From an uncultured Candidatus Saccharibacteria bacterium (GTDB taxonomy: Bacteria > Patescibacteriota > Minisyncoccia > Phycocordibacterales > UBA12088): a DNA stretch of 64,000 bases. Below, piece by piece: positions 54 to 61,715 of the stretch; positions within the stretch are counted from its first letter, which is position 1, and every line of letters starts with the position of its first letter. The position numbers and the translations under genes are program-made. The notes under the pieces are model-generated. The model saw only the letters and a program-made list of their open reading frames with translations. It was not told the DNA's origin and made no database searches. The DNA is taken from assembly GCA_964562615.1 (NCBI GenBank), contig CAZLUD010000001.1, positions 327,628 through 391,627 of the forward strand, given 5' to 3'.

Positions 54-236
54 AATACATAATGCCCTATCGGGCATATCTTTTGTGCGGGAATTTCCGA
101 CCTTGGAAACCTTCGGTTTTCCAACGTTCGCTTTGCTCACTGCCTTCCACCACGGGAGAGAATTCTCTCCCACCGATCTCATTCCGGTATCCCTCAGTAC
201 ATAATGCCCTATCGGGCATATCTTTTGTGCGGGATA
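54..236. repeat. tRNA-Gly(TCC)-linked palindromic element. A 38-bp direct repeat (56-93 and 198-235, consensus ATACATAATGCCCTATCGGGCATATCTTTTGTGCGGGA) contains the tRNA 3' terminus plus its trailer. The ~100 bp core between the copies holds an inverted copy of the tRNA T-arm/acceptor (rc of ATTCCGGTATCCC) and of the anticodon-stem segment (GGAAGGCAGT).
   Basis: The repeat and the inverted segments were aligned by eye. The repeat includes the perfect hairpin ATGCCC-GATA-GGGCAT. Confidence 0.6.
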
Positions 237-4518: not shown

Positions 4519-4554
4519 AATACGACAAAAAATACGCTATGCCTACTACCATAA

Positions 4555-4800
4555 ATGAAAGAGCGGCCCCAAAGTTGGGGCCGCTCGGAGGGGGTAAAAC
4601 CCCCTCCTCGACGTGTGACCTTCGTTGGTCAGGCGCTGCCGGTCGAGTGCCTGGCCGACGGGTTGGTGCCGGTGGTGTCGACCCTGCGCGCCGACGGGTC
4701 GGTGCCGAGATTCGCCATGCTGATGACAGAAAACGGAGGATGCTTCGTTCGAGTCATTGCCATTCTCCATGAGCTAGGGTGGGGCTCTATGCCCCAATCC
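4555..4800 (-). ncRNA. GC-rich structured element of ~250 nt, far above the local GC content. Its minus-strand 3' end has two stacked perfect hairpins (GGAGGGGGTTTTACCCCCTCC then GAGCGGCCCCAACTTTGGGGCCGCTC) followed by TTTCATTT, about 40 nt upstream of ORF 4518-4261. It is a candidate riboswitch/leader or a small RNA; the identity is unknown.
   Basis: Hairpins seen directly. There is an internal 19-nt direct repeat GCCGACGGGT(T/C)GGTGCCG x2. The overlapping ORFs look like random translation of GC-rich sequence. No match was found to the RNase P P4, tmRNA or SRP motifs I could recall. Confidence 0.3.
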
Positions 4801-4972
4801 CATGCCTCAAGTAATATACACCAAACTAAAAATAAGTCAATAGACTGTAAACGAATTTTGCATGAGTTAAAAACCCCTCCAAAAAACCATTATGTGTAGC
4901 TATTTTTTGGAGCCACTCCTACATTTGTTCAAAAAAATCTTTTATTTCGAATTTTTTTATACTTTGAAGGCT

Positions 4973-5767: not shown

Positions 5768-5855
5768 GGTATGACGATAAATATGTAAACGTCATTTGAG
5801 CATACCCCAGAGCACTAGGCTCGTCTACCCTATACCGTAGGAGTATTATGGCGCT

Positions 5856-9835: not shown

Positions 9836-10126
9836 GGGTACTTCAAGAAATATAGTCGCGTTGCTCCTTATTTCTTTGGTCGCTCGAAGCGTTGCTTCTC
9901 TCTCTGTATTTTGTCGGGGCGCCGAGAAGGGGTCAGCTCACTAAGTACATTGAGTCGCAAACTCCTCAATGTACTAAGTGGCTCCTCCCCGGCCTCGCAG
10001 CCCCATTTCTCACGTTGTTCGAAATGGGGACCCGCTGCTCCGGCTTTCGATTCTCGGCGCCCTTGGCCAAAATAGTATCGCTCGAAGCGTTGCTTCTCTC
10101 TCTGTATTTTGTCGGGGCGCCGAGAA
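9795..10126. repeat. tRNA-Pro-linked composite repeat. A 46-bp direct repeat (9883-9928 and 10081-10126) contains the tRNA-Pro 3' end plus 30 nt of trailer. A ~33-bp direct repeat sits at 9795-9826 and 10048-10080. An inverted copy of the tRNA T-arm/acceptor (TTTCGATTCTCGGCGCCC, 10045-10062) faces the direct copy (GGGGCGCCGAGAA, 9915-9928) across a 120-nt hairpin-rich core. The segment 9827-9882 is an inverted copy of 10915-10975.
   Basis: Aligned by eye. Core hairpins: ACTAAGTACATTGAG/CTCAATGTACTAAGT and CCCCATTTC/GAAATGGGG. Confidence 0.6.
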
Positions 10127-10879: not shown

Positions 10880-11175
10880 CTCCTCTTATTTAGTGTGCGA
10901 CCTAATTTTGTTGAGCGACCAAAGAAATAAGGAGCAAAGCGACTATATTTCTTGAAGTACCCCTTGTGGCACGTAGCGATTACAAAATGGAAGTACTCTC
11001 TGTGGTGCGACCTAATTTTTACGACCGTAGGGAGATAAAAATGGAAGTACTCTTTGTGGTGCGACCTAATTTTGTTGAGCGACCAAAGAAATAAGGAGCA
11101 AAGCGACTATATTTCTTGAAGTACCCCTTGTGGCACGTAGCGATTACAAAATGGAAGTACTCTTTGTGGTGCGGG
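10880..11175. repeat. Tandem array of two ~115-bp units (approx. 10893-11009 and 11056-11172) separated by a truncated 54-bp unit. Each unit ends with the motif AAAATGGAAGTACTCT(C/T)TGTGGTGCG. The array begins with a duplicate of the tRNA-Gly(GCC) trailer (CTCCTCTTATTTAGTGTGCG).
   Basis: Direct repeats aligned by eye. This is not CRISPR-like: the units are long and the spacer is itself repeat-derived. Confidence 0.7.
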
Positions 11176-11309
11176 TAGGGAGAATCGACCCGCTTTTGCT
11201 AAGCTCGCAATGCTCGCTAAGCACGCTGGTCGCGCCTCGCCGACAATTTTACTTCGCTTTGCTACGTAAAATCGTAGACCGGCTCCGGCGTTCGATTCTC
11301 CCTACCCGC
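11169..11309. repeat. tRNA-Gly(GCC)-linked palindromic element. Perfect 18-19 bp terminal inverted repeats (GTGCGGGTAGGGAGAATCGA ... TTCGATTCTCCCTACCCGC) are copies of the T-arm/acceptor 3' strand of the adjacent tRNA-Gly, and they flank a ~100 nt core. In tRNA sense, the distal arm reads ...CCCGCACCA, ending in a CCA that the genomic tRNA lacks.
   Basis: Seen directly. The core is homologous to the Lys-linked element at 61377-61526 (shared blocks GCTAAGCAC, TCGCCGACAATTTT, CGTAAAATCGTAGACC, GCTCCGGCGTTCGA). Confidence 0.7.
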
Positions 11310-11354
11310 CTAAAATATATCGTCAAAGCTCCGCTTTCTCCTCTTATTTTAGTG

Positions 11355-15042: not shown

Positions 15043-15993
15043 CTATCTTTTTGTGTGAAAACGTTTATGCACCTCACGGAGGTGTTTGTCTGTAACGTGT
15101 GTATACACTTGTGTAGTAGCAATATTTGCATGACCAAGCAGTGCTTGTACAGAACGCAAGTCTGCACCATTTGAAAGAAGGTCGGTGGCAAATGAGTGTC
15201 TAATGACGTGAGGGGTAACTTTTTTAGTAATACCTGCTTTTATGGCGTACTGCTTGACTATTCTTTCAACAGAGCGGGGATTGAGGCGAGTGGTGGTGGC
15301 GTTTTTTGAACGATTTGATGTCTGCACAAACAGCGCATCATCCATATCTTTTCTTTTGACTAGATAGGCGCGAATAGATTCACGCGCTGAATCAGACAAA
15401 AATACAACGCGCACCTTTTCACCTTTACCACGTACAGAAAACTCTTCCTTTGAAATATCTAAATCACGAGAAAGCGAACAAAGCTCTGACACGCGCAATC
15501 CAGTAGAAAAAAGCAGCTCGAGCATGGCTCTATCACGGAGTGATTTAACATCATCACCATTAGCTGCGGCCATTAAACGGGTGAGTTCTTCAAACGATAT
15601 AAGATCGAGTGATCGTTCTCCAACTTTAGCTAGCTCTATTCGCTCAGGTGAAAGAGATTCAATGCCACGCTTTCTTAAATATTTTAGAAACGCACGTAAA
15701 GCAATAAGGTAGTAATTCTGTGTCTTTTTTTTGAGTGTTTCTTTTCTTCCACCTATTGCAGCGCCAGATTCTTGGCGATTTAGCCATAATCGGTATTCTC
15801 TAAGAAGAGTGTCATCAATGGTTGATGGATTTTCTACCTTTGCAAAGGCAAGAAAACGAGAGAGGTATCGCTCATAATTCTCTATAGTATTGAGAGAGCG
15901 TCCTTTTTCAATCTCAAGGTGTTCTAAAAACTCACGCTTTAGTGTTTCTATGTGCGTGGATGACATGTCACAAGTATGACATCTATGTCGCAA
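15043..15993 (-). CDS. Tyrosine site-specific recombinase, XerC/XerD-like.
   Basis: C-terminal catalytic region HVIRHSFATDLLSNGADLRSVQALLGHANIATTQVYTHV with the catalytic Tyr. The N-terminal SAM-like domain is typical of Xer recombinases. Confidence 0.8.
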   Translation of the reverse strand: MRHRCHTCDMSSTHIETLKREFLEHLEIEKGRSLNTIENYERYLSRFLAFAKVENPSTIDDTLLREYRLWLNRQESGAAIGGRKETLKKKTQNYYLIALRAFLKYLRKRGIESLSPERIELAKVGERSLDLISFEELTRLMAAANGDDVKSLRDRAMLELLFSTGLRVSELCSLSRDLDISKEEFSVRGKGEKVRVVFLSDSARESIRAYLVKRKDMDDALFVQTSNRSKNATTTRLNPRSVERIVKQYAIKAGITKKVTPHVIRHSFATDLLSNGADLRSVQALLGHANIATTQVYTHVTDKHLREVHKRFHTKR

Positions 15994-31607: not shown

Positions 31608-33065
31608 ATGAAAAACGCAATCAGTATAAGTAGTTTTGTATCACTCGTAGTGATCGCGCTATCGTGCGTGAGCATCATTCCAACAAGAAGTAGTGCGCAA
31701 ACACCACCGCAAGAACCGATTACTTGCCAAGAAGTTTCTTCCACCATCGCACAACTCACCGCCCTTCGAGCACGAGCAGAGGCAGCAGACACTCCAGAGG
31801 AGATGCAGGCAGTAGTGGATGAATTTAATAGACTAGAGACACATAATGGTAACGATTTGGTGGTAGCACAACAAGAAAATCAACTTGAAGATAGAAGAGC
31901 ATATTTAATAAGTAGAATAGAGGACACAAAGGAGGTTGATGCAGCACAAGGTGGAAGAAATGCAGAAGAGCTTGATGAGCTACTTGCACGAGCAGAGGCT
32001 GCAGATGACTTTACCGAGCTTGGACGAGTAGAAGGAGAGCTTGGTGAGATACGAGGGAGATTAGGGCTTAGTGGTGGAGGAAGTGGTGGGGGTGGGGGAG
32101 GAGGGGGCACAGTAGGTGGAGGAGGCGGGGGCACCACCACACCAGGAACAGGGGTGGGCTCAGGTACCGCTGCGGGTACACCAACAGACACTGGCTTTGC
32201 TCCAGCAGGGTATACACTTGCGTGGAATGATGAATTCAATTCTCTTAGCTTAGGAAGTGGTTCAGCGTTTAGATGGACGCCATTTGATACGCTTGCTGCA
32301 AATGCTGGATATGATGCAAAAGGAAGAATACTTGCAAGTAACAGCTCTGATGCTATATGGGTTGCTGATTACGAAACAAATGCAGGTGGGACACGAACGT
32401 ATGGTGACGCATTTAAGGCAGCCGGCACCTACGGTGAGGGGCCATTCTTCCATGAGGTAAGTGATGGCGCACTTGCTATGCGTGCGTATCCAGTACCAAG
32501 CTCAGTACGCAACGAATTTATTGCGTATGGATGGCCGCAGGGTGCTCCATACGCCGCAGGTGGAATATTTGGATCACTCTCACATACCCAAACATACGGC
32601 TACTATGAAGTGCGGCTGCGTGTAAATTCAATAACAAGAGGCCAACATTTTGCGCTTTGGCTACTCCAAGACGACCTTGCATGGCCTCCTGAGATAGACA
32701 TGCTTGAGGTTATTGGTGAAAATCCTCAGTTTTATCACACTACCGTACACGGCGAAGGGCCAAATGGCTCTGACCCAACCACCTCATTTAAGCTGCTTCC
32801 AGCAGGAGGGAGCGGGACATGGCACACCTACGGATTTTTGTGGACACCTGAAAGTATGCGATTTTTTGTCGATGGAAAGGAGTATTTCTTAAGAGAAAAT
32901 TATGGGGAAGGGGCAGAAATAGGAACATTACCTAACTTTGTAAACAAGCCAATGTACCTCCTTGCAACCTGGGAAATGGCAAGCTATTGGCCAGGAGATC
33001 CTGATGCAACTACCGTGTGGCCAGCAGAGGTTGAGCTTGATTACGTCCGCATCTACAAACCATAG
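31608..33065 (+). CDS. Secreted protein: the same N-module plus Gly-rich linker as 29818-31596, fused to a glycoside hydrolase family 16-like (beta-glucanase/laminarinase-type) domain.
   Basis: GH16-like motifs WNDEFN and catalytic E-I-D-M-L-E (PPEIDMLEVIGE). Confidence 0.55.
   Translation: MKNAISISSFVSLVVIALSCVSIIPTRSSAQTPPQEPITCQEVSSTIAQLTALRARAEAADTPEEMQAVVDEFNRLETHNGNDLVVAQQENQLEDRRAYLISRIEDTKEVDAAQGGRNAEELDELLARAEAADDFTELGRVEGELGEIRGRLGLSGGGSGGGGGGGGTVGGGGGGTTTPGTGVGSGTAAGTPTDTGFAPAGYTLAWNDEFNSLSLGSGSAFRWTPFDTLAANAGYDAKGRILASNSSDAIWVADYETNAGGTRTYGDAFKAAGTYGEGPFFHEVSDGALAMRAYPVPSSVRNEFIAYGWPQGAPYAAGGIFGSLSHTQTYGYYEVRLRVNSITRGQHFALWLLQDDLAWPPEIDMLEVIGENPQFYHTTVHGEGPNGSDPTTSFKLLPAGGSGTWHTYGFLWTPESMRFFVDGKEYFLRENYGEGAEIGTLPNFVNKPMYLLATWEMASYWPGDPDATTVWPAEVELDYVRIYKP
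31741..32107 (+). repeat. Copy 2 of the 367-bp near-identical repeat (pairs with 29954-30320).
   Basis: Nucleotide alignment by eye. Confidence 0.85.
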
Positions 33066-38280: not shown

Positions 38281-38784
38281 TTGCCAACAATTATTTATAT
38301 AAATGACTTAGCTATAGGTTGTATTCGAGGTACAATATACTCACATACCCCTATGCGTTATCACGTACCACAATTTATTGATATCGAAGATAAAGTGGTT
38401 GGACCACTTACCATAAAACAGTTTGTGTACATCGCGGGAGGTGTAGGGTTTGTTGCACTTCTTACCGCATTTATGCCGTGGCAGTGGGCTGCTATTGTGG
38501 GTAGTCCGCTTGTACTCCTTGGATTACTCCTTGCCTTCTATCAAGTAAACAATCAACCTTTTATCGCAATAATGGAAGCGGCATTTTATTACCTTGTGAG
38601 TAAAAAACTCTATCTTTGGAAAAAGAATACTGGGGTAAAAGATGAAGCAAAAGAAATGGTAGGGAAGGAAGCGCTCGTGCATACTCCCTATGTGCCAAAA
38701 GTCTCTAATAATAGACTTAAAGAGCTTGCGTGGTCACTAGACATAAAAGATAAAACTGGTGGTTCAACACTAAATCAATCGTAG
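38281..38784 (+). CDS. PrgI/TcpE/VirB3-like small membrane protein of Gram-positive-type T4SS.
   Basis: Motif GPLTIKQFVYIAGGVG followed by two transmembrane helices. It lies immediately upstream of the VirB4-like ATPase. Confidence 0.45.
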   Translation: MPTIIYINDLAIGCIRGTIYSHTPMRYHVPQFIDIEDKVVGPLTIKQFVYIAGGVGFVALLTAFMPWQWAAIVGSPLVLLGLLLAFYQVNNQPFIAIMEAAFYYLVSKKLYLWKKNTGVKDEAKEMVGKEALVHTPYVPKVSNNRLKELAWSLDIKDKTGGSTLNQS

Positions 38785-38785
38785 T

Positions 38786-39430
38786 ATGAAAGAAGTTAAT
38801 AAAAAATCAGGCGCATCACAAGCATTTGTACCCATCGAGGAGGTGCGAGATGGAATTGTCATACTTAAAGACGGCTCATTGCGCGGAGTGTTTATGGCGT
38901 CATCGACCAACCTCGCCCTAAAGGGGCAAGACGAGCAACAAGCTATCCTCACCCAGTTTGGACAATTCCTTGATTCGCTTGATTTTTCAGTGCAATTTTT
39001 TGTGCAATCACGAAAACTTGATATTCGCCCCTATGTCGCCATGCTTGAAGCGCGCTATGTTGAACAAACAGAAGAGCTCATGAAAATACAGGTACGTGAG
39101 TATGTAGATTTCATAAAAACATTTACCGAGGGTGCCAATATCATGACAAAAAGCTTCTTTGTGGTAGTGCCATACGCACCAGCAATTATTGGTAGCGCAT
39201 CATCAATAAATCCTTTTGCAAAAAAAGACGAAAGTGGTGAAGCGTCCAATGCCACCTTTGAAGAGAGCAGGTCACAACTTGAGCAGCGCATGGGCATCGT
39301 ACAACAGGGGTTGCTACGATCTGGAGTACGGGTCGCACAACTCGGAACCGAAGAGGTGATAGAATTGTTTTACAAGATGTTTAACATGGGTGAACTAGAG
39401 CGCCCTATCCCTCTTGATAACAGAGCATAG
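38786..39430 (+). CDS. T4SS-associated hypothetical protein (214 aa) whose N-terminus resembles the N-terminal region of VirB4-family proteins (VPIEEVRDGIVILKDGSLRGV).
   Basis: Motif similarity by recollection only. Its stop (TAG at 39428-39430) lies 5 nt before the VirB4 start. Confidence 0.35.
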   Translation: MKEVNKKSGASQAFVPIEEVRDGIVILKDGSLRGVFMASSTNLALKGQDEQQAILTQFGQFLDSLDFSVQFFVQSRKLDIRPYVAMLEARYVEQTEELMKIQVREYVDFIKTFTEGANIMTKSFFVVVPYAPAIIGSASSINPFAKKDESGEASNATFEESRSQLEQRMGIVQQGLLRSGVRVAQLGTEEVIELFYKMFNMGELERPIPLDNRA

Positions 39431-39435
39431 TATAT

Positions 39436-41271
39436 ATGGGACTATTTGATATCTTTAACAAAAAAGGCGACAAAGAGTCGATGGAGGATTACCACATCCA
39501 GCCCGTACTTCCTGCAGAGATGTTTGAAGTTGGCTCTCTTGAGCTTAAAGATGTTATCGCACCATCTGCGCTAGAGATTACCCCCAAAGAAATGAACTTG
39601 GGTGACAAAGTAGTCCGAACATTTTTTGTTATTTCGTACCCGAGCTTTCTCTCTGATAACTGGTTTTCTCCAATTATCAATCTCGATAAAGTGTTTGATG
39701 TCTCAATCTTTGTTCATCCTATAGACACCGCCTCGGTACTTAAAAAGTTTCAAAAAAAGGTAGCAGAGGTACAAAGCCAGATTCAACTACGCGAAGAAAA
39801 AGGACTTGTCCGCGACCCAAAACTAGATAGTGCATATCAAAACCTCGAGGAACTCCGTGATAAATTGCAACAAGCACAGGAGCGTCTGTTTGATGTTGGT
39901 TTGTATATCTCTATATACGGAGACAGTAGGGAGGAGCTTGATAAAATTGAATCAGAGATAAAATCAATTCTAGAAGCGCAGTTGGTCTATTTAAAGCCCG
40001 CACTCTTTCAACAGGAGCAGGGGTGGAAGAGTGTCATACCTATTTCTACCGACTTACTTAGTGTGCATTCAAAACTAAACTCTCAACCACTTTCAAGCTT
40101 TTTTCCTTTTATTTCTTTTGATCTCTCTGCAGATACCGGTATCCTCTATGGTATCAACCGCCACAACTCATCTTTGGTGTTGTTTGACCGATTCTCAATG
40201 GAAAACTACAACTCTGTGGTATTTGCAAAATCTGGTTCTGGAAAGTCCTACACCATAAAGCTAGAGATTTTGCGTTCACTCATGTTTGATACAGACATCA
40301 TTGTTATCGACCCAGAACGTGAGTATGAATATATCGCTGAAGCAACTGGCGGGCGTCACTTTAACATTTCACTTTCATCAGGTCACCATATCAATCCGTT
40401 TGATCTTCCTATACCCCGAGAGGACGAGTCTCCTTCAAACGTTCTTCGATCACACGTGGTATCGCTGGTGGGATTGTTTCGTATTATGCTCGGCGGGCTT
40501 TCTCCAGAAGAAGACTCAATTATAGACAGGGCAATAACCGAGACCTACGCACTAAAAGACATCACCGGTGAACATGACTTTTCAAGCATGAACCCACCGC
40601 TTCTCTCTGATTTTGAACTAGTACTTGCTGGTATGGATGGAAGTGAATCACTTGTACAACGACTCACCAAGTACACCAAGGGTACGTGGGCAGGATTTAT
40701 TAACCGTCCTACCAATGTTGATATCAACAAACGATTCGTGGTGTTTTCAGTACGTGACATGGAAGACGAGCTGAAGACTGCCGCGATGTACATCATCACT
40801 AACTTTATTTGGGCAACCATACGCAAAGAGCTCAAAAAGAGGCTCTTGGTGGTAGATGAGGCGTGGTGGATGATGAAATCAGAAGACACCGCATCATTTC
40901 TCTATGGTATTGCAAAGCGAGGACGAAAATACTATCTAGGTTTGGCAACCATCACTCAAGACGTTGATGACTTTTTGAAAAGCCCATATGGCGTACCGAT
41001 GATCACCAACTCATCTATACAATTACTCCTTAAACAATCTCCAACCTCAATAGGAACAATCCAGCAGGTATTTAACCTTACCGATGAAGAGAAATATCTT
41101 CTTCTTGAATCTAATGTGGGGGAGGGGATATTCTTTGCTGGCATGAAGCACGTAGCGATAAAGATAATTGCTTCGTACACCGAGGATCAGATTATTACCT
41201 CTGATCCGTCACAGCTCCTCTCTATAAAGAAAGCACGCGATGAAAAAAAGGCGTCTGTTGATACGGTATAA
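39436..41271 (+). CDS. virB4: VirB4/TrbE/CagE-family type IV secretion ATPase.
   Basis: Walker A (VVFAKSGSGKSYTIK), Walker B (LLVVDEAWWMM). The N-terminal block APSALEI...RTFFVISYPSFLSDNWFSPIINLDKVFDVSIFVHPID is typical of Gram-positive VirB4 homologues. Confidence 0.8.
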   Translation: MGLFDIFNKKGDKESMEDYHIQPVLPAEMFEVGSLELKDVIAPSALEITPKEMNLGDKVVRTFFVISYPSFLSDNWFSPIINLDKVFDVSIFVHPIDTASVLKKFQKKVAEVQSQIQLREEKGLVRDPKLDSAYQNLEELRDKLQQAQERLFDVGLYISIYGDSREELDKIESEIKSILEAQLVYLKPALFQQEQGWKSVIPISTDLLSVHSKLNSQPLSSFFPFISFDLSADTGILYGINRHNSSLVLFDRFSMENYNSVVFAKSGSGKSYTIKLEILRSLMFDTDIIVIDPEREYEYIAEATGGRHFNISLSSGHHINPFDLPIPREDESPSNVLRSHVVSLVGLFRIMLGGLSPEEDSIIDRAITETYALKDITGEHDFSSMNPPLLSDFELVLAGMDGSESLVQRLTKYTKGTWAGFINRPTNVDINKRFVVFSVRDMEDELKTAAMYIITNFIWATIRKELKKRLLVVDEAWWMMKSEDTASFLYGIAKRGRKYYLGLATITQDVDDFLKSPYGVPMITNSSIQLLLKQSPTSIGTIQQVFNLTDEEKYLLLESNVGEGIFFAGMKHVAIKIIASYTEDQIITSDPSQLLSIKKARDEKKASVDTV

Positions 41272-41279
41272 TACGGGGT

Positions 41280-41756
41280 ATGCACGTAGATAACGACAAT
41301 TACAGAATTTCCTCCTTTACAGGAGGCATGATGGTGAGTGTTGCCATGATAACCGACGTGGTGCAAATGGCACTCACCGGGCTACACCTATTTATCCCCC
41401 TCTTTGGGAGTATGCTTTCTATACTTAGTATCTTTGGTATAACCACCCTCGGGGGGCTTATTTTCTTTCTTTGGTTTCATATTCTTGATGTGAGTCAAAT
41501 AGATTCAGCGCTTGATAACCCTGGCGCAACATTTGCCTTTTCGATTGCAGAACTATCGCCGTTTGTTAACTTTCTCCCTTTTATGACTATAAAAGTAGCG
41601 TGGGAGGTATACTCATCGAGGCTTTCAGACAAAAAAGAGATGGAGAAAAGCAAGAAGAAAAAAGCACAACTACGACAACGTCAGTTACAACAGGCGATGA
41701 ATGCTCGTATGTTGGCACAAAATGCAAATAATCAAGTAATTCAAGATGCGAGCTAG
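41280..41756 (+). CDS. Small polytopic membrane protein with a Lys/Gln-rich C-terminal tail; a T4SS cluster component.
   Basis: Hydrophobicity only. Confidence 0.35.
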   Translation: MHVDNDNYRISSFTGGMMVSVAMITDVVQMALTGLHLFIPLFGSMLSILSIFGITTLGGLIFFLWFHILDVSQIDSALDNPGATFAFSIAELSPFVNFLPFMTIKVAWEVYSSRLSDKKEMEKSKKKKAQLRQRQLQQAMNARMLAQNANNQVIQDAS

Positions 41757-41789
41757 AGGAGGGGGGTAAAAAGGTGGTATACTTTTTTT

Positions 41790-42806
41790 ATGATTCGTAT
41801 AGGTATGATGATGGTGATATGGAGTGTGGGGATATTGGTATCTCTTAGTCCTTTACCGTTGCTTGCACAGTCATTTGGTATTGGCATACCATCGCCAACT
41901 ATTGGCGGTTCGCCTCTTACCATGGAAATGTTTCCTCAATACGCACGCCCGGGTGAGTATGTGGAGTTTTCTTTAGTTAGCTCAACCATCGCACTTTCAA
42001 CCGCTACTGTCACCTGGACAGTAAATGGTACTCGAGTATTTTCTGGTGCATCGGCAACAAAATACGTGTATAAAATCCCAGAGAGTACTGATCCATTTGT
42101 GGTGGTAGCAGATGTCTACACAAGAACAAATCAGTACTTTACGACACGTCTTACCGTACAACCATCATCTCTTACCCTCCTCTATGAAGGCGCCACCTAC
42201 GCGCCGCCACTATATGCCGGAAGACCAACACTCTCACCAGAGGCAAGTCTTTCGGTACACGCGATTCCTGCTGTGATAGAAAACGGCATAGAGCTACAAC
42301 CGGATGATCTCTATTTTAAGTGGACCGTGAATGGAAAGTTTGTTTCTGAATTATCTGGACTTGGCAAAAGCTCTGCGATTGTAGCAAACACTGGGTACCT
42401 CCGTCCTTTAGATATTATTGTGGAGGCATCATCAGATAACGGAACCATTGCAGGGGATAGAATAAAAGTGTCGGTAGAAAATCCGTGGGTTGTCTTCTAT
42501 GAAAATGATCCGTTGCTTGGCATTCGCTACGACAAAGCACTTGGAACATACTCGCTAAAAAATGAGGAGGTGACAGTTATTGCAGAGCCCTACCATATGA
42601 GCGCATACAAAAGAAATGATGCTACCCTTGAGTATTCTTGGGGAATCAATCAGGAACGACAGGCAGAAACCACTGCACCGAGCATCACCCTTCGTCCACA
42701 GAGCGATACAGGTAGTGGAATCTCTACCATAGGTGTTTATATACAAAATACCGTCTTCGAACTGCAAAACGTAGCTAATGCATTTAGAATAAACCTCTCA
42801 CAATAA
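41790..42806 (+). CDS. Secreted protein (signal peptide, 338 aa), likely beta-rich; a T4SS cluster component.
   Basis: N-terminal signal-like segment MIRIGMMMVIWSVGILVSLSPLPLLA. Confidence 0.35.
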   Translation: MIRIGMMMVIWSVGILVSLSPLPLLAQSFGIGIPSPTIGGSPLTMEMFPQYARPGEYVEFSLVSSTIALSTATVTWTVNGTRVFSGASATKYVYKIPESTDPFVVVADVYTRTNQYFTTRLTVQPSSLTLLYEGATYAPPLYAGRPTLSPEASLSVHAIPAVIENGIELQPDDLYFKWTVNGKFVSELSGLGKSSAIVANTGYLRPLDIIVEASSDNGTIAGDRIKVSVENPWVVFYENDPLLGIRYDKALGTYSLKNEEVTVIAEPYHMSAYKRNDATLEYSWGINQERQAETTAPSITLRPQSDTGSGISTIGVYIQNTVFELQNVANAFRINLSQ

Positions 42807-42812
42807 TATTGT

Positions 42813-43298
42813 ATGAATGTTGTAACTATACTAAAAGGGCTGCTCATATTCATGGTCACGCTAGTTATCGCGGTACCATCATACGCCCTTGCTGCTGATC
42901 CAATCGAGCCGTTAATTTTCCTTCCACGGATTGTTGGTGATGCATCATCTCCGACAAGCGTAGAGGGGCTGCTTCAAGGATTGTTTCAACTTTCCATTTC
43001 AATCGGTGCGATTTTGGCAGTGATAATGATTGCTGTTGGTGGTATTGAGTATATGGGTAGTGACGCAATATCAAGCAAGCAAGCAGGGAGAGAGCGTATG
43101 TTTAATGCAGTACTTGGGCTAGTGCTTATACTTGGTACCTATGTGATTTTAAATACAATAAATCCCAATCTCCTTAGCTTTGCTATTTTCTCCGCCCCTG
43201 GTAATCAGGTTGAATCTAGAGCTGATTTTCCAACTGAGGCAGTAACAAATCCAGGCAGTGGGCCTACACAGGGGGTACCTGCTGGTACCAGTGGTTAA
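42813..43298 (+). CDS. VirB2/TrbC-like pilin-type protein: a signal peptide followed by two hydrophobic helices separated by a short polar loop.
   Basis: Topology (signal, then LFQLSISIGAILAVIMIAVGGIEYM, polar loop, then AVLGLVLILGTYVILN) resembles T4SS pilins. There is no sequence-level proof. Confidence 0.35.
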   Translation: MNVVTILKGLLIFMVTLVIAVPSYALAADPIEPLIFLPRIVGDASSPTSVEGLLQGLFQLSISIGAILAVIMIAVGGIEYMGSDAISSKQAGRERMFNAVLGLVLILGTYVILNTINPNLLSFAIFSAPGNQVESRADFPTEAVTNPGSGPTQGVPAGTSG

Positions 43299-45261: not shown

Positions 45262-45756
45262 TTACACCAGCTCCGCGTCTCCTGTAGGAATAAAGCCGGC
45301 GTTTCGTGGTGTGATAACAATATGTCGATCTCTTCCTTCTCCACGAGATTCGGTTTTTATATCCTTATCTTCAGAAAAGAGGGCGTGTATTATCATGCGT
45401 TCATATGAGCTCATTGGTTGAAGGGGTACTTCTGCTTTTAACGAACGTACTCGCTCTGCGAGCATTTTTACTGTACTGACAAGGGTATCAATCTTATTCT
45501 TTTGGAAGTTGTTCACATCAAGCATGAAATGCCTTCCTTCTTCGCCATATTTCTTCTCTGTTATCCTTTTTACAATATGCGTTAGCGCTTGCAGTGTCTC
45601 ACCGCGCTCACCAACAAGTACTTGATTAGGAGAAGTGACCATCACAGAAGGGTGTATATCTGACGCCTCAACTACCACACTCTCATACTCTGCCCCCATG
45701 GCGGCAAGTACCTCTTCTACTATTGTTTTAAGTTCTTGGGGATTCATACTAGGCAT
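45262..45756 (-). CDS. Jag/KhpB-type RNA-binding protein (KH plus R3H domains).
   Basis: C-terminal R3H-like region (ERMIIHALFSED...ESRGEG). Conserved position after yidC. Confidence 0.65.
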   Translation of the reverse strand: MPSMNPQELKTIVEEVLAAMGAEYESVVVEASDIHPSVMVTSPNQVLVGERGETLQALTHIVKRITEKKYGEEGRHFMLDVNNFQKNKIDTLVSTVKMLAERVRSLKAEVPLQPMSSYERMIIHALFSEDKDIKTESRGEGRDRHIVITPRNAGFIPTGDAELV

Positions 45757-46471
45757 CGTTCTTTATATGCTTCTTTACATACATCTCTTGGAAAATTTGG
45801 AACACATTACTTGTTATCCAGTACAACGCAACCGCAGCAGGAAGTGCGTATGAAATACCAGTAATAATAAGAGGGAAGACATACTTCATTTGAAGCTGAA
45901 AACTTCGTTGAAAATCATCACTAAATGAAGCGTTATCTTTTCGCTTTGTGATTTCAGGCATCACAATATGCATTTGTATGTATTGGGTGATACCGGTAAG
46001 GAGCGCAAGGAATATATTTCTCTCAGCAACATTAATAAGCCCCAAGAAATTCATATCGATTGTAGCTGGAGTTGGTATAAAGCTATACAGAATGTCAGTG
46101 TTAATACTTGGTAGTCCTCCGCTTGAGAAAACCCAAAAAAGCCCAAGAATGATAGGTATCTGAACAAGAAGAGGGATAAACAATGAAAATGGGCTTATGT
46201 TGTACTCTCGGTAGAGCTCCATTGTTTTAAGGGCAAGTGCTTGCTTATCTTCTTTGTATTGCTCTTTTAGCGCCTCCAGCTTTGGTTGCATGAGACGAAT
46301 TATTTGTTGAGTTTTGGCCGCTTTAAGGGAGATAGGGAAGAGGAGAAACTTTACCGCTAGAGTAAGTACAATAACCGCAATACCAAGCTCTGCGTACGGC
46401 ACCACAGAAACGATTCCCACAAGGGCGTTATATAAAGGGTTATATACTACCGCATTAAATATGTCTGCCAT
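45749..46471 (-). CDS. yidC: Membrane protein insertase YidC (short form).
   Basis: 240 aa polytopic protein in the rnpA-yidC-jag context. Motif PLLVQIPIILGLFWVF. Confidence 0.75.
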   Translation of the reverse strand: MADIFNAVVYNPLYNALVGIVSVVPYAELGIAVIVLTLAVKFLLFPISLKAAKTQQIIRLMQPKLEALKEQYKEDKQALALKTMELYREYNISPFSLFIPLLVQIPIILGLFWVFSSGGLPSINTDILYSFIPTPATIDMNFLGLINVAERNIFLALLTGITQYIQMHIVMPEITKRKDNASFSDDFQRSFQLQMKYVFPLIITGISYALPAAVALYWITSNVFQIFQEMYVKKHIKNDA

Positions 46472-46534
46472 TATCCAGCTATTCTAGCTGAATAATGGTA
46501 CTAAATCTACTTGCGCTAATGAGAAAAAGTGCCG

Positions 46535-46867
46535 TTATGCGTGATGTCTATTTATTGACTTACTAACCATACTATCAATCTCTGCTTTAATCTGCTTTTG
46601 CTTTGCCTTGAGTATTCCTTTGTTTGGAAAAACCACATATGATCCCTTGGGTATAGTGTGTAGAATATCCTTAAAAAGACTATATATTCTGCGCTTTATT
46701 ACATGGCGCTCATGTGCCATAGACAATGTTTTTTTAGAAATAACCACAGACATCTTGGTGAGGGTGCCTTTATAGACGCGTATAGTAAGCAAATCACCTC
46801 TATGCGTAGTAGGTGACGATCCCTTCGGGAATTCTTCTCGAGATAGTCTCGAGACAGCTCTTAGCAT
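46535..46867 (-). CDS. rnpA: Ribonuclease P protein component.
   Basis: 110 aa basic protein; RNR-like motif region (KKTLSMAHERHVIKRRIYSLF). Position between rpmH and yidC. Confidence 0.75.
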   Translation of the reverse strand: MLRAVSRLSREEFPKGSSPTTHRGDLLTIRVYKGTLTKMSVVISKKTLSMAHERHVIKRRIYSLFKDILHTIPKGSYVVFPNKGILKAKQKQIKAEIDSMVSKSINRHHA

Positions 46868-46876
46868 GAAATGGTA

Positions 46877-47014
46877 TTAAACCGCTAATCTAGCTCTGCC
46901 CTTCATTCTTCTTCGCTTGAGCACTCTGGTGCCTGTTTTGGTCCTGGATCTAACTAAAAATCCGTGAGTGGTCTTTCTTTTTTTGTTTTTTGGTTGGTAG
47001 GTTCTCTTTGGCAT
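46877..47014 (-). CDS. rpmH: 50S ribosomal protein L34 ([45 protein letters not shown]). It is not in the ORF track because it is shorter than 60 aa.
   Basis: Manual translation of the minus strand. The L34 signature is nearly invariant. Start ATG at 47014; stop TAA at 46877-46879. Confidence 0.9.
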
Positions 47015-47070
47015 ATAAACATCTTATACACATCTTATTAACATAATTACTCATAAATCGCAAGTTTTTA

Positions 47071-48453
47071 TTGCATGAAGAGACAGCTATAATAGGGGAC
47101 ATGCACACTCAAAACAATAGAGAGCTCTGGCAAAATATCCTTACTGAAATAGAGCTGACTATTCCCGGACCACATTTTAAGACATGGTTTAAAGATACCT
47201 CAATAGTAAAAATAGAAGACGGCGTAGCAACCATTGGTGTTCCTACAGAAGTTGCAAGAGAGTGGCTTCAAAAGAAGCATAGTAAGTTACTTCTTAAATC
47301 ACTACGAAGCCATCTTGATTCTGCTCGGTCTCTTGAGTTTATCGTACATAAATCAAACAAGCTCAAGCAACAAGCACCTACATCACGTAGTCCATTTTTT
47401 GCCCAAGAGTTGCCGCTCGGTGAGCATTACGTAAACAGAAGTGATAACCTCAATCCAAAATACGTATTTGAAACCTTTGTGGTTGGACCATTTAACGAAA
47501 TCGCCTTTTCTGCAGCACAGGGTGTGGTAAAAGAGCCTGGAATTACCTACAACCCATTGTTTATATATGGAAATACTGGATACGGTAAAACACACCTCAT
47601 CCAAGCTATTGGTAATCAAATAAAAAAGCAGAGCCCGAACAGAAAAGTATTCTATGTCACGAGTGAAAAATTCACTATGGATTTTGTAAACGCTCTTCAA
47701 AGCAACTCCGTTAATGCATTCAAAGAAAAGTATCGTCAATATGATGTACTTATCATGGATGATATTCAGTTTTTTGCTCAAAAAGAAAAAACACAGGAAG
47801 AGCTCTTTCACTTGTTTAACTCACTTTATCAAAACAATAAGCAGATAATCTTCTCTTGCGACAAGCACCCAAACTATATTCAGGATCTGGAAGATAGATT
47901 GAAGTCTCGATTTGCACAGGGAATGATTATTGATATATCAGAGCCAGATAGCGAGTCGCGTATCGCCATCCTTAAAACCAAGGCAGCACAACACAATTTT
48001 CACATAGAAGACTCCATGCTTACCTTTATTGCGTCACTTGTAGACGGCAACATACGAGACCTCGAGGGTATGCTTAATGCTGTTATTTGCCAAACACAAC
48101 TACGTGGTAGAGCGCTTAATCCCGGAGAAATAAAACATCTTATCAAGGATAGTTCGAGACCAAAAAGAGCCATCTCTCCAAAGGAGATAGTAAAGCGAGT
48201 AGCGGAGTTTTATGATCTTGAAGAAAATGCTATTTATGAAAAGACAAGAAAGAAGGAAGTAGTTCGTCCTCGACAACTCATTATGTACATCCTGAGAGAG
48301 GATTATAACGTGTCATATCCACTTATCGGTGAAAAGTTAGGAGGGAGAGATCACACCACTGTTATTCACTCATGTGAAAAAATCAAAAAAGATATTCAAC
48401 ATAACAGCGTATTACAACAAGAATTGCAGCATATACGCATGATGTTGAAATAG
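47071..48453 (+). CDS. dnaA: Chromosomal replication initiator DnaA.
   Basis: AAA+ Walker A (GNTGYGKTHL), sensor regions, C-terminal DNA-binding domain (QLIMYILRE...GGRDHTTVIHSCEKI). Confidence 0.9.
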   Translation: MHEETAIIGDMHTQNNRELWQNILTEIELTIPGPHFKTWFKDTSIVKIEDGVATIGVPTEVAREWLQKKHSKLLLKSLRSHLDSARSLEFIVHKSNKLKQQAPTSRSPFFAQELPLGEHYVNRSDNLNPKYVFETFVVGPFNEIAFSAAQGVVKEPGITYNPLFIYGNTGYGKTHLIQAIGNQIKKQSPNRKVFYVTSEKFTMDFVNALQSNSVNAFKEKYRQYDVLIMDDIQFFAQKEKTQEELFHLFNSLYQNNKQIIFSCDKHPNYIQDLEDRLKSRFAQGMIIDISEPDSESRIAILKTKAAQHNFHIEDSMLTFIASLVDGNIRDLEGMLNAVICQTQLRGRALNPGEIKHLIKDSSRPKRAISPKEIVKRVAEFYDLEENAIYEKTRKKEVVRPRQLIMYILREDYNVSYPLIGEKLGGRDHTTVIHSCEKIKKDIQHNSVLQQELQHIRMMLK

Positions 48454-48689
48454 TGTGGATATATATGTGGATAACAAATGAACAGTACTGTGGAAAAGAG
48501 ATGAATGAGAAAGGTGATAACTCGAGGACAACACAACTAGTACATTTCAAAAATAGGTATACGAGCCGTATGAACACTTATACACAAACATCTATGCATA
48601 AATACCTACCTGTGTAGCTATGGTTAGAAGTTATCCACGTATCCACACCCCTAATAATAAAACTATCTTTATAAGCAAAAAAACTCACT
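48454..48689. promoter_or_regulatory. Probable oriC. The DnaA-box cluster lies between dnaA and dnaN: TGTGGATAT (48455-48463), a perfect TGTGGATAA (48467-48475), TTATCCACG (48631-48639) and TATCCACAC (48640-48648). A further near-consensus box, TTATACACA, sits at 47024-47032 upstream of dnaA.
   Basis: 9-mer matches to TTATCCACA or its complement seen directly. AT-rich spacer. Classic dnaA-dnaN intergenic origin. Confidence 0.65.
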
Positions 48690-49790
48690 ATGAACTTCAC
48701 TACACCTACTGCAACGCTACTCACCATAAGCTCAATAGTTGAAAAGGTAAGTGGGAGAAATCTAACACTCGCTAATCTCAATGGGGTGTATGTTGAAGCG
48801 AGTAAGGGGCAGGTCATTCTTAGAGCAACAAACCTGGACGTTGCGGTAGAGATAAAAGTACCTGCAAAGGTGGAAGAAGACGGTGTGGCTTCAATACCGG
48901 GGAGTATGCTCTCTCAGATACTCTCAAACAGCTATAAAGGCGATAGCGTGAGCGTAGTGCGCAAAGACGGTACATTGTCCATAAAAACAGGGGACGGCCT
49001 CTCTACCATCAAAATATTGCCTGATGAGGACTTTCCAACACTCCCAAGTGTTGTTGATGGTAATAAGATAACCTTAAAGGCTAAAGATTTTATTGATGGC
49101 ATTGCTAATGTCTGGCACTGCGCATCTACGTCAACAATTAAACCGGAGCTAGCAAGTGTGTACGTATATCCTGACGGGAAGAATCTTATTTTTGTCGCAA
49201 CAGACTCATTTAGATTGGCAGAAAAGAAGGTAGCAGCACAATTTACCGGAGAGTTTGACTACATGCTCATTCCCTCAAGAAACATTCCGGAGATTATTAA
49301 GGTACTTGAGATTGCTGAAGGAGAAGTCGAACTTACCTTTAATGATCATCAGCTTTCATTTACCTTTGACTCGGTACACCTTACTACGCGTCTTACTGAC
49401 GGGGTATTCCCTGACTACAGACAAATTATTCCAAAGCAACGTGTTGCCGAAGTAACGGTACTTACTAAGGATTTGCAACAAGCATGCAAAAGAACCAGCA
49501 TGTTCTCTGATAAGTTTAATCAAGTGCAGTTTTCGATACAACCATCAAAAAAGATATGTAGAGTTATTGCTAAAAACCCAGATGTTGGCGAGTCAGTAAC
49601 TGATCTTGATGCAGTTATAGAAGGGGAGGAGCTTGATATCTCGTTTAATGTTAAGTACATCAGTGAAGTGTTTCAGGCACTACAAGCGGATAGTGTCTCG
49701 CTCTCATTTTCAGGAACCGCAAAACCTTTAGTTATTAAAGGGGTGAGTAATGCATCATTCCTTTACTTAGTGATGCCAATGAACAGATAA
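48690..49790 (+). CDS. dnaN: DNA polymerase III beta sliding clamp.
   Basis: 366 aa, three-domain length. Position after dnaA. Confidence 0.8.
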   Translation: MNFTTPTATLLTISSIVEKVSGRNLTLANLNGVYVEASKGQVILRATNLDVAVEIKVPAKVEEDGVASIPGSMLSQILSNSYKGDSVSVVRKDGTLSIKTGDGLSTIKILPDEDFPTLPSVVDGNKITLKAKDFIDGIANVWHCASTSTIKPELASVYVYPDGKNLIFVATDSFRLAEKKVAAQFTGEFDYMLIPSRNIPEIIKVLEIAEGEVELTFNDHQLSFTFDSVHLTTRLTDGVFPDYRQIIPKQRVAEVTVLTKDLQQACKRTSMFSDKFNQVQFSIQPSKKICRVIAKNPDVGESVTDLDAVIEGEELDISFNVKYISEVFQALQADSVSLSFSGTAKPLVIKGVSNASFLYLVMPMNR

Positions 49791-60729: not shown

Positions 60730-61266
60730 ATGAGGAGGACGCTGATGACTCTCAGCAGGATCGTCGAAATAACGAGCAACAAACACAGAAACAGAATACG
60801 GCGCACGCCTATTCTCATTCTCGTTGGTGCTTTTATTCTTTTGCTTTTTCTATCGAAGATTGCAAACGCAACTCAAAACGATATTGAGTGCTTGGCTAAC
60901 AATGCTGCCTATGAAGCGGCAGGTCAGGGTGTGACTGCAATGGCAAATGTTATTGAAGTAACCATCAATAGAGCAAATGGAAAGAGTATATGCCAGGTAG
61001 TGTATGAAAAAACTACCAATGGTGTTTGCCAATTTTCTTGGGTGTGCATGCAAAAAAGGAGAGTGCTCACTCACAGGGAAAAGAAGCTTGCTATAGATAT
61101 TGCACAATCAGCGTTATACGGAGGAGCTACCCTCAACTCCCCATTTACAGAGGATGCACAATATTTTTGTGTACCAAAGGCATGCAAAAAATGGCATGCA
61201 AAAAGCCCGCAACTAGAACGGGTAGGATATGATGGTGCCCACGTGTATTACAGAGTAGCATCGTAA
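60730..61266 (+). CDS. Cell-wall hydrolase of the SleB/CwlJ family (Hydrolase_2 domain) with an N-terminal membrane anchor.
   Basis: Motifs CLANNAAYEAAGQG...VIEVTINRA...CQVVYE...CQFSW. Confidence 0.55.
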   Translation: MRRTLMTLSRIVEITSNKHRNRIRRTPILILVGAFILLLFLSKIANATQNDIECLANNAAYEAAGQGVTAMANVIEVTINRANGKSICQVVYEKTTNGVCQFSWVCMQKRRVLTHREKKLAIDIAQSALYGGATLNSPFTEDAQYFCVPKACKKWHAKSPQLERVGYDGAHVYYRVAS

Positions 61267-61276
61267 TATGTGTGGA

Positions 61277-61308
61277 AAGGGCTCGACAATGTCGAGCCCT
61301 TTCTGTGT
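61277..61308 (+). terminator. Intrinsic terminator hairpin AAGGGCTCGAC-aat-GTCGAGCCCTT plus TTCTGTGT.
   Basis: Seen directly; it follows the stop of the SleB-like gene. Confidence 0.6.
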
Positions 61309-61526
61309 ATGGAAGTACATTTGTGGTGCGACCAAAAAATAATGAGCTCTGCGAATATATTTTTTGAAGTACTCTTGTGGTGCGCCCGGGAGCTCGGTCA
61401 CTAGTTGCTAACCATTTTGTACGCTTCGCTTCAAAATGCTAAGCACTTGCGACCCCGACTCGGCGACAATTTTGCTCCATTTCATTTCGCAAAATCGTAA
61501 ACCGCCTCCGTCTTTCGAACCCTACG
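61309..61526. repeat. tRNA-Lys-linked element. It has two copies of the motif (ATGGAAGTACATTTGTGGTGCG at 61309-61330; TTGAAGTACTCTTGTGGTGCG at 61364-61384). The 5' arm is a copy of the tRNA-Lys 3' end including CCA (GTGGTGCGCCCGGGAG, 61377-61395). The ~115 nt core is homologous to the Gly-GCC element core. The distal arm is a degenerate inverted T-arm (TTTCGAACCCT, 61511-61525).
   Basis: Aligned by eye with 11169-11309. Confidence 0.6.
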
Positions 61527-61596
61527 CAAAGCACGAAGGTGCTTTGCTCCACGGGGCACCTAATCAAAATGGAACACCTACGTGTTCTATTTTTCA

Positions 61597-61672
61597 TGGT
61601 GCGCCCGGGAGGGTTCGAACCTCCGACCAATGGCTTAAAAGGCCACTGCTCTACCAGCTGAGCTACAGGCGC
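61597..61672 (-). tRNA. tRNA-Lys (anticodon TTT) with genomically encoded CCA.
   Basis: Minus-strand cloverleaf: acceptor GCGCCTG/CGGGCGC, D-arm GCTC-AGCTGGTA-GAGC, anticodon loop CTTTTAA, T-arm GGAGG-TTCGAAC-CCTCC, 3' ACCA. Confidence 0.85.
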
Positions 61673-61715
61673 GTACGAGACGCACTATACCACAAATAGC
61701 GTTCAAGTCGATATG

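Follow-up and report, generated by a model that had tools for sequence, protein, structure and literature searches.

A structured element behind tRNA-Lys(TTT) in a Paceibacteria genome and its family of repeats with arms matching the end of the upstream gene

The subject of this analysis is a small structured element that lies downstream of the tRNA-Lys(TTT) gene in 64,000 nucleotides of contig CAZLUD010000001.1 (assembly GCA_964562615.1, an uncultured Candidatus Saccharibacteria bacterium; this whole stretch is called the window). A first-pass annotation had described the element as tRNA-derived, as homologous to a second one behind tRNA-Gly(GCC) about 50 kb away, and as carrying termini tailored to whichever tRNA it follows. 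All five tRNA genes predicted in the window by ARAGORN are on the minus strand, and the elements are therefore best read on that strand. The following features make up the Lys locus.

61711..61684: promoter-like site ahead of tRNA-Lys
61597..61672, minus strand: tRNA-Lys(TTT), CCA encoded (ARAGORN; Rfam tRNA, 74 bits); its 3' end is the source of the arms
61561..61596, minus strand: trailer X, the hairpin GAACACGTAGGTGTTC followed by CATTTTGATT, terminator-like
61587..61572, minus strand: terminator-like hairpin within trailer X
61552..61560, minus strand: inverted arm part 1, GGTGCCCCG, complementary to the 3' strand of the tRNA-Lys acceptor and to CC, with a 1-nt deletion
61526..61549, minus strand: extra hairpin of 24 nt, GAGCAAAGCAC-CTTC-GTGCTTTGC, splitting the inverted arm between the acceptor complement and the T-stem complement
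61514..61525, minus strand: inverted arm part 2, GTAGGGTTCGAA, complementary to tRNA-Lys in its T-loop and the 3' strand of its T-stem
61393..61513, minus strand: core of about 120 nt, of the type here called T1, a three-way junction according to fold and covariation
61381..61392, minus strand: direct arm CTCCCGGGCGCA, followed by CCA at 61380..61378
61309..61380, minus strand: two "GTACTTC" modules (CCACAA..GTACTTC)
61380..61327, minus strand: first GTACTTC module, CCACAAGAGTACTTC...GGTCGCA, whose first 3 nt are the CCA that ends the direct arm
61326..61309, minus strand: second GTACTTC module, CCACAAATGTACTTCCAT
61274..61303, both strands: strong bidirectional terminator-like hairpin GAAAGGGCTCGACATTGTCGAGCCCTTTCC, closing both the tRNA-Lys/element block and the convergent gene 60730-61266

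The direct arm and its CCA (61378..61392) repeat exactly the 15 nt that end tRNA-Lys. This CCA-bearing arm had been correctly traced to tRNA-Lys but was called proximal; it is the 3' arm, far from the tRNA. The core between the arms consists of a stem Pa (GAC/GUC), a GNA/GA internal loop, P2 (ACGAUUUUG/CAAAAUUGU) and P3 (UGCUUAGCAUUUUG.../...CAAAAUGGUUAGCA), and a covariance model of the T1 family, described below, matches the Lys copy at 61388-61524 with 61.4 bits. The two copies of a trailer motif reported beside the element correspond to the GTACTTC modules: the motif CCACAARRGTACTTC is found at 61326..61309 and 61380..61363, with five further occurrences at the Gly locus, against a chance expectation of 0.05.

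Three other elements are present in the window, two of them with a T1 core.

11170..11309, minus strand: T1 element behind tRNA-Gly(GCC), with inverted arm, core and direct arm in the same order as in the Lys copy
11309..11291, minus strand: inverted arm of the Gly-GCC element, GCGGGTAGGGAGAATCGAA
11188..11170, minus strand: direct arm of the Gly-GCC element, TCGATTCTCCCTACCCGCA, followed by a CCA that the tRNA-Gly(GCC) gene itself does not encode
9923..10056, minus strand: T1 element behind tRNA-Pro(TGG), between perfect 49-nt direct repeats that comprise the 3' end of the tRNA and its trailer
75..196 (approximate), minus strand: element behind tRNA-Gly(TCC) whose core is of a third type, T3, and whose arms follow the logic of T1

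The proposed homology between the Lys and Gly-GCC elements was borne out. The Lys region (61381-61560, minus strand) and 11170-11309 have a conserved core in common; a pairwise alignment of the Lys element with 11160-11315 shows 76% column identity, and the two loci score 61-79 bits with the covariance model (E about 1e-15 to 1e-20). Conserved blocks lie around CGGAGsCGGTyTACGATTTTrCG, AAAATTGTCGsCGAG and GTGCTTAGC, and a check of the whole window showed TACGATTTTRCG and AAAATTGTCGSCGAG to be confined to these two loci. The four shared blocks that had been listed are real, but not all of them are identical between the loci, with 1-2 differences apiece. The Gly-GCC element has a predicted fold of -76.6 kcal/mol and matches the covariance model with 78.6 bits, and the tRNA-Pro element with 55.5 bits; fold z-scores are -7.7 for Gly and -8.3 for Pro, as against -3.0 for Lys.

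For comparison, 80 syntenic loci totalling 1.34 Mb were retrieved by means of the cca gene next to Gly and Arg tRNAs. All are from Patescibacteria metagenome-assembled or complete genomes, labelled Kaiserbacteria, Adlerbacteria, Nomurabacteria, Paceibacterota and in some cases Saccharibacteria; the predicted cca product of locus L009 has 92% amino-acid identity to that of the window. The window and these loci were searched for copies of the last 16 nt of each tRNA, allowing up to 3 mismatches. Such a copy is present 57-330 nt downstream of 57 of the 274 tRNA genes, where about 0.7 would be expected by chance, and no upstream or far-downstream copies were found in this set except other tRNA genes with similar ends. 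Per syntenic tRNA, 17-22% carry the direct copy, which serves as a proxy for an element; eight tRNAs have an inverted copy only, and in most of these a core is still present.

A covariance model built from 24 T1 copies detected 68 copies in the same 1.34 Mb of related Paceibacteria genomes, of which 62 are located 23-312 nt, and mostly 35-75 nt, downstream of a tRNA on the same strand. With a minimum arm length of 10 nt, an inverted arm is present in 44 of these tRNA-linked copies, a direct arm likewise in 44, and the two together in 38, in agreement with the claim that the termini fit whichever tRNA is followed. Many copies have an inverted arm that is split by a hairpin at the junction of the acceptor complement and the T-stem complement. 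Hairpins comparable to that of the Lys copy occupy the identical position in L016, L060, L061, L009 and L072, and the split-arm layout as such recurs in L016, L060, L061 and L009. An independent scan of metagenomes with a T1-only pattern, which has no bias to the cca locus, gave 42 model matches on unrelated contigs, 30 of them behind tRNAs of at least 12 species. Overall, T1 cores follow tRNAs of at least 15 species, so that a single family uses many tRNAs and does not follow a pattern of one lineage for one tRNA.

T1 copies are also located 3' to rplL (L122), efp (L166) and a gene for a small basic protein (L039 and L016). At these sites the arms repeat the final codons of the coding sequence, to both sides of a hairpin. 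The rule is thus one of gene end T, hairpin X, reverse complement of T, core, and T again, and it does not require a tRNA as neighbour, as the first-pass annotation had implied; tRNAs are by far the commonest targets of T1, not exclusive ones. Nor is the element as a whole tRNA-derived: its arms alone are, and the core is an independent three-way junction.

When the tRNA trailers of the sampled loci were read, at least four unrelated core types (T1 to T4) with this common arm logic were recognized. A model for the second type, T2, found 32 copies in the 1.34 Mb, 27 of which are behind tRNAs and show the same arm logic. T3 cores homologous to the one at window position 75-196 are present in L087 (~7685-7800) and L034 (~4560-4760); their conserved stretch is GTGGnGGAAGGCAGTGAGCnnAGCGAnCGTTGGAAAACCGnnGGTTTCCAAGG, and they are placed behind tRNA-Gly(TCC) or tRNA-Arg. 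The fourth type was seen in L056, L038 and L030.

Two further arrangements were observed at gene ends. In L153 (9950-10400), two T1 copies lie amid repeated antisense fragments of the 5S rRNA 3' end (GGCGGCGACCTACTCTC), and their arms are copied from these fragments. Downstream of tRNA-Pro in L051, L057 and L069 there is a conserved insert of about 55 nt, after which the T-arm and the 3' strand of the acceptor are copied in full, and in L022 (after tRNA-Gly(TCC)) and L049 unrelated inserts of 10-50 nt precede such a copy. These inserts usually contain a hairpin and have neither an inverted arm nor a T1 or T2 core; they are simple duplications of a tRNA 3' half.

The T1 core is a strongly covarying three-way junction that matches no Rfam family. 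The RNAalifold consensus of the 24 copies contains P1, which is formed by the arms, a 3-bp Pa, the conserved GNA/GA internal loop and the hairpins P2 and P3, with compensatory changes in 20 of its 22 pairs. In the alignment of the 68 model matches, 93% of cells are paired, compared with 65% in shuffles and 31-47% in slid controls, and the covariation score is 0.61 against 0.18 in shuffles, although the alignment is fitted to the covariance model and its pair counts are somewhat inflated. The second pair of Pa is unambiguous (CG 29, GC 23, AU 10). Covariation is equally strong in T2 (0.555 versus 0.147). A search of the window with Rfam 15 at gathering thresholds returned the five tRNAs only, and in E-value mode the elements gave only noise. 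Hammerhead, twister, K-turn, retron, group I and group II structures were rejected by comparing the cores by eye, as the conserved junction nucleotides that each of these requires are absent.

The folded strand appears to be that of the upstream gene. In 65 of the 68 copies the tRNA-sense strand folds better (mean -46.3 versus -38.2 kcal/mol), and G-U pairs number 51 as against 25 A-C mismatches. The element has the orientation of its tRNA even where two convergent tRNAs are only about 200 nt apart (L018), and in the window it follows the tRNA to the left as well as to the right of the minimum in cumulative GC skew near 12 kb. Orientation is therefore not tied to the replication strand, and insertion specific for that strand was ruled out on these grounds. 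The tips of the T1 P3 loops and of many trailers are very often UGA-GCGNAGC-GAA, where N is any base; examples are found at 61431-61443 and 11257-11267 in the window and in L047, L015 and L034. GCGNAGC is an unusually stable mini-hairpin that is better known from DNA, and its frequency prompts one to ask if it is DNA, and not RNA, that folds.

Orthologous sites with and without an element indicate that it is an insertion, and not a passively duplicated sequence, a possibility that the first-pass annotation had likewise rejected. The tRNA-Pro site filled in the window is empty in L009. Comparison of L060 (empty) with L071 (filled) at tRNA-Pro, and of L048 (empty) with L031 (filled) at tRNA-Gly(TCC), shows that the ancestral trailer resumes directly after the direct arm, T', and that the trailer X beside the tRNA in the filled sites is new. 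The direct repeat ends at the discriminator and a C in 38 of 47 cases and extends at least 15 nt into the trailer in only 9. Tandem arrays (L018, L061) contain different cores between identical units of T, X and the reverse complement of T, abbreviated rcT.

Mean identity between T1 cores is 0.62 within a genome, for copies behind different tRNAs, and 0.565 for copies behind the same tRNA species elsewhere (p = 6e-4); copies behind different tRNAs in other genomes have 0.559, about the same as the latter value. Since cores resemble those of the same genome and not those behind the same tRNA, the arms appear to be generated or homogenized locally, as was implied by the earlier suggestion that the element templates on its neighbour. 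The values contradict a match of arms by descent from tRNA-specific lineages. Inverted arms often run on into the complement of the genomic trailer (in L060, and in L016 as a 28-nt perfect palindrome), which points to the gene or its primary transcript as template, and not to the mature CCA-tailed tRNA. CCA follows the direct arm in 11 of 47 cases, a mild enrichment over the 34 of 258 tRNA genes; with arms that copy genomic trailer, we do not take the CCA as a sign that mature tRNA was copied. A tRNA-primed or CCA-templated retroelement was also rejected, as the arms are not complementary to CCA and no reverse transcriptase was found among the window's open reading frames (ORFs) of at least 80 amino acids, which were scanned.

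The Lys locus was compared across contigs from near-identical strains, including L001, L005 and L089. In L001, two tandem elements follow tRNA-Lys, first one designated B and then one designated A, with a GTACTTC module and a new trailer between them; B differs in P2 and P3, and A has the complete inverted arm CCCGGGAGGGTTCGAA. In L005 the locus contains B alone. Part 2 of the inverted arm in the window is identical to the 5' arm of B in both L001 and L005, and the window copy joins B's inverted (5') arm to the core and direct arm of A. The window copy is thus a recombinant: it goes back to an array of two elements, which the sister strain L001 has kept intact, and recombination between the repeated arms of the L001 arrangement accounts for both shorter forms, that of L005 and that of the window. 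The inverted Lys arm was earlier called degenerate, and so it is; its oddity and the weaker fold of this copy are explained by recombination between tandem elements. An origin of this arm from the Gly arm was considered and rejected, as L001 shows that it derives from Lys with a deletion and a hairpin insertion.

The GTACTTC modules vary as well. L089 and the window differ by indels of 18-110 nt of these modules at repeat boundaries, and at the Gly and Pro loci the modules are highly polymorphic among strains. They represent a separate family of 50-75 nt, with the layout CCACAARRGTACTTC ... AT-rich quasi-palindrome ... GGTCGCA (10889-11170, 9836-9885 and 61309-61380 in the window; L089), occur in both orientations, and include a tandem duplication with a 164-nt period at 10895-11173; a related motif follows tRNA-Arg in L022. 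Metagenome contigs from the window's organism (L002, L003, L004, L006 and L008) repeatedly end at or beside tRNA/element loci, so that the elements appear to break short-read assemblies.

Among the scanned ORFs of the window, no transposase, integrase or reverse transcriptase was associated with the elements, and no Y1/HUH gene and no Nop-domain match was found. These ORFs encode predicted housekeeping proteins (dnaA, dnaN, rnpA, yidC, ruvABC, polA, cca, pnp), T4SS/pilus-like proteins (type IV secretion system, T4SS) and proteins of no assigned function. The sole integrase of the window (15043-15993) is Xer-like and has a syntenic position beside rpsO/pnp. No integrase gene lies inside a repeat-bounded element, the inserts being just 57-330 nt, and no larger repeat-flanked islands were detected in the 80 loci, where distant direct repeats were other tRNA genes only. 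A pattern scan of a viral collection, bearing on a phage or plasmid origin, gave 20 matches, of which one weak model match was left, in a stretch of 72% GC; such an origin was not supported.

L042 has a 2.4-kb islet (4500-6934) between tRNA-Gly(TCC) and a degenerate tRNA 3' end, which is followed by X, T1 and a direct arm; its genes encode a CopG/RHH protein and proteins of 293 and 158 amino acids without Pfam matches, and no recombinase was found in it. Elsewhere in the window, jag, yidC, rnpA, dnaA and dnaN are located at 45262-49790, and gene orientation switches at the skew minimum near 12 kb (tRNA-Arg/cca); the position of the replication origin is therefore ambiguous. Next to a T4SS-like cluster (PrgI-like, VirB4/TraG-type ATPase, T4SS pilin) at 38281-43298 lie several large ORFs at 28-37.5 kb that have no Pfam matches. 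They include two paralogues with glycine-rich repeats that have a 300-nt repeat of 95% identity in common (29907-30206 and 31694-31993).

We read the Lys element as a copy of T1, on this reading a multi-copy, non-autonomous insertion module with target-templated arms, in Paceibacteria (Candidate Phyla Radiation, CPR/Patescibacteria), and give this reading, which is drawn from sequence comparison, a probability of about one half. Family membership, structure, strand, position, insertion polymorphism, local tailoring and the recombinant origin of the Lys copy are shown by the sequences. As no transposase, integrase or reverse transcriptase was associated with the elements, the mechanism of mobility is inferred, and so are the enzyme that takes part and any function of a transcript. 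The insert follows the tRNA gene directly, after the discriminator base and a C, in the order new trailer hairpin X, rcT, a core of about 90-120 nt forming the three-way junction, and T'. Here rcT is a reverse-complement copy, and T' a direct copy, of the gene's last 10-25 nt, and the original trailer is displaced beyond T'. The active or selected form may be the folded tRNA-sense single strand, most simply a read-through transcript, possibly also an intermediate of single-stranded DNA (ssDNA), in which rcT has two possible partners, the 3' end of the tRNA itself and T', the second pairing closing the junction. The arms would not be inherited with the core but templated on, or homogenized against, the local target, which would account for the presence of Lys, Gly, Pro, Arg or other ends on one and the same core. 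They might be produced by target duplication and fold-back copying at insertion (staggered cleavage around the gene end, and a hairpin), by guide-like use of the inverted arm followed by quasi-palindrome template switching or homogenization, or by a process at the RNA level. As every insertion would regenerate a tRNA-like 3' end, arrays could accumulate, and short-repeat recombination between arms would reshuffle them; the window Lys copy is such a product.

Several observations weigh against this reading. In addition to the lack of an associated enzyme in the window, no excised or intermediate form of an element, RNA or ssDNA, was seen. Many X hairpins look like intrinsic terminators of good efficiency, and this speaks against read-through transcription in abundance; among the hairpin loops GNRA and UNCG are rare and GCGNAGC is frequent; and the pair counts for T1 share the inflation mentioned above. 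The orthologous copies in L039 and L016, which have been kept with compensatory changes, also fit a vertically inherited functional RNA.

That last observation belongs to an alternative that we consider possible, if rather doubtful, namely that the elements are purely functional, cis-acting trailer RNAs of highly expressed genes, with a role in processing, termination, insulation or quality control and inherited vertically. The middle arm would switch between the tRNA 3' end and the decoy copy, and selection would keep the arms matched. Strong covariation and sense-strand specificity would be expected of such RNAs, as would an orientation that is always that of the upstream gene, and the hosts (tRNAs, rplL, efp) are all highly expressed; the L039 and L016 orthologues have diverged with compensatory changes, and the whole block in the window lies between the promoter-like site of tRNA-Lys and the first strong terminator. 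A vertically inherited RNA does not readily explain why the distribution is patchy, with 17-22% of each syntenic tRNA carrying the direct-copy proxy, why orthologous sites are empty, why elements are gained and lost between strains, and why tandem arrays contain different cores. Cores that cluster by genome and not by tRNA, four unrelated cores with a common arm logic and an X that is often a canonical terminator upstream of the element also speak against it. The elements might instead be scars or miniature derivatives of tyrosine-integrase tRNA elements, with a crossover in the T-loop, a tRNA 3' end and trailer brought in by the element, and a core left over from an attP arm. A direct repeat that spans the tRNA from T-loop to 3' end and in most cases reaches no farther, with the ancestral trailer displaced past it, is what this would produce, and both the gene-carrying islet at the equivalent position in L042 and the simple duplications of [hairpin + tRNA 3' half] at tRNA-Pro in L051, L057 and L069 are consistent with it. 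We nevertheless think it improbable: the inserts are of 110-330 nt without an integrase, larger repeat-flanked islands are lacking in the 80 loci, at least 15 tRNA species and protein genes exceed the range of integrase specificity, an inverted target copy is foreign to att sites, the core covaries and is asymmetric between strands, no tRNA-specific core lineages exist, and the pattern tried on the viral collection found no copy.

An origin as remnants of ssDNA transposons, of the IS200/IS605 (PATE) or attC/CTX type, appears equally improbable. An HUH or tyrosine enzyme encoded at another place would act on the folded sense strand, and the inverted arm would be a long guide pairing with the target. 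The strand-specific, hairpin-dominated fold, the common GCGNAGC mini-hairpin loops and an insertion exactly 3' of a defined target are in favor of this origin, and the left end of IS608 resembles the layout of target, linker, internal complement and hairpin. However, orientation follows the gene and not the direction of replication, the target is duplicated at the right end, unlike in IS200/IS605, the scanned window ORFs include no Y1/HUH gene, and we know of no precedent for locus-specific guides of 10-25 nt. Least probable in our judgement, indeed very unlikely, is the absence of any dedicated mechanism, with arms and repeats as by-products of replication template switching at hairpins near tRNAs (quasi-palindrome extension and slippage). 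Template switching at inverted repeats is an established mutational process, and it would suit the long near-perfect palindromes that reach from the tRNA end through X into the inverted arm, the 28-nt arms in L016 and the location of strain differences at short repeats. It leaves unexplained the conserved, covarying cores with uniform layout and orientation at hundreds of loci and the foreign trailer X at filled sites; moreover, the second copies of the non-palindromic X are direct repeats, not inverted ones, and core-less inverted copies are not as common as core-containing ones (most of the eight inverted-only tRNAs have a core).

The T1 insertion module, if such it is, has its nearest counterparts in bacterial miniature repeat elements and in integrative elements of tRNA sites, from which it differs by its constant core and site-copied arms. 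It resembles tyrosine-integrase tRNA elements in the direct repeat from T-loop to 3' end (57 of 274 tRNAs, ending at the tRNA end in 38 of 47), in the supply of a new trailer with displacement of the original one, and in tandem build-up at a single tRNA. In contrast to them, T1 is only 110-330 nt long, has no integrase, carries an extra inverted target copy and a conserved covarying core, and uses many tRNA species as well as the ends of protein genes. With PATEs of IS200/IS605, integron attC sites and the CTX phage attP it has in common strand-specific folded hairpins, insertion just 3' of a recognized sequence and an internal segment complementary to the flanking target. The target or guide of T1 is, however, locus-specific and 10-25 nt long, as opposed to a fixed 4-5 nt in IS200/IS605 PATEs; it is repeated at the far end, orientation is independent of replication direction, and the scanned window ORFs include no cognate enzyme. 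Like REP, BIME and REPIN sequences and MITEs (miniature transposable elements with inverted repeats; ERIC, Correia, RUP), T1 and T2 are small, non-coding, structured repeats in 3' flanks, multi-copy and extragenic (68 T1 and 32 T2 copies in 1.34 Mb), which vary between strains and form arrays with alternating orientation of the pairing segments. Those families have constant inverted repeats and variable loops, whereas T1 combines a constant core with closing arms that copy each insertion site; element-constant terminal inverted repeats are not found, as the arms differ between loci.

Repeats behind tyrT in Escherichia coli and the tRNA pseudogene repeats of Photobacterium are direct copies of the last 15-20 nt of a tRNA downstream of its gene. 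They are simple tandem duplications without a structured core, an inverted copy or a spread to many tRNAs. T-elements of plant mitochondria, mascRNA and acceptor/T-arm minihelices are comparable to T1 in that the closing helix of tRNA-linked copies corresponds to the acceptor and T stems, sometimes with a 3' CCA and a side hairpin in place of the tRNA body. Unlike these tRNA-like signals, T1 often extends its pairing past the discriminator into the trailer and lacks a T-loop, its copies at protein genes have no tRNA-like helix, and there is no Rfam match. TIGR arrays, the one dual-guide system with a CPR link that the literature brought up, consist of alternating 8-12-nt repeats with 9-nt spacers in 36-nt units, with a Nop-domain Tas gene adjacent (PMC12045711). 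Dual guides of the TIGR-Tas kind were ruled out, given T1 units of about 150 nt with mutually complementary arms and scanned ORFs without a Nop-domain match.

The genomes of CPR/Patescibacteria are small and usually thought to be poor in mobile DNA. Direct copies of the gene's own 3' end are present behind about one fifth of the sampled tRNA genes, and the T1 and T2 models add copies with degenerate arms. No description of tRNA-flank repeats or structured RNAs in CPR was found in the searchable literature, and by this measure and that of Rfam 15 the family is apparently undescribed. Very tentatively, T1, T2 and related cores might form a new class of small mobile elements without proteins, self-retargeting and defined by structure, that would insert at the 3' ends of highly transcribed genes next to a hairpin, have the target copied in both orientations at or after insertion, and perhaps pass through a folded single-stranded RNA or DNA intermediate with the aid of host enzymes. 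Two new covariance models, T1 and T2, can now be used for annotation. In practice, the elements appear to disrupt metagenome assemblies at tRNA loci, and their pseudo-tRNA 3' ends can mislead programs that search for att sites and islands. If the elements are mobile, they would represent targeting without a fixed end sequence, since the target itself supplies the ends; should they be functional RNAs, one would have a widespread, unannotated class acting on the 3' ends of tRNAs and mRNAs in a major bacterial lineage.

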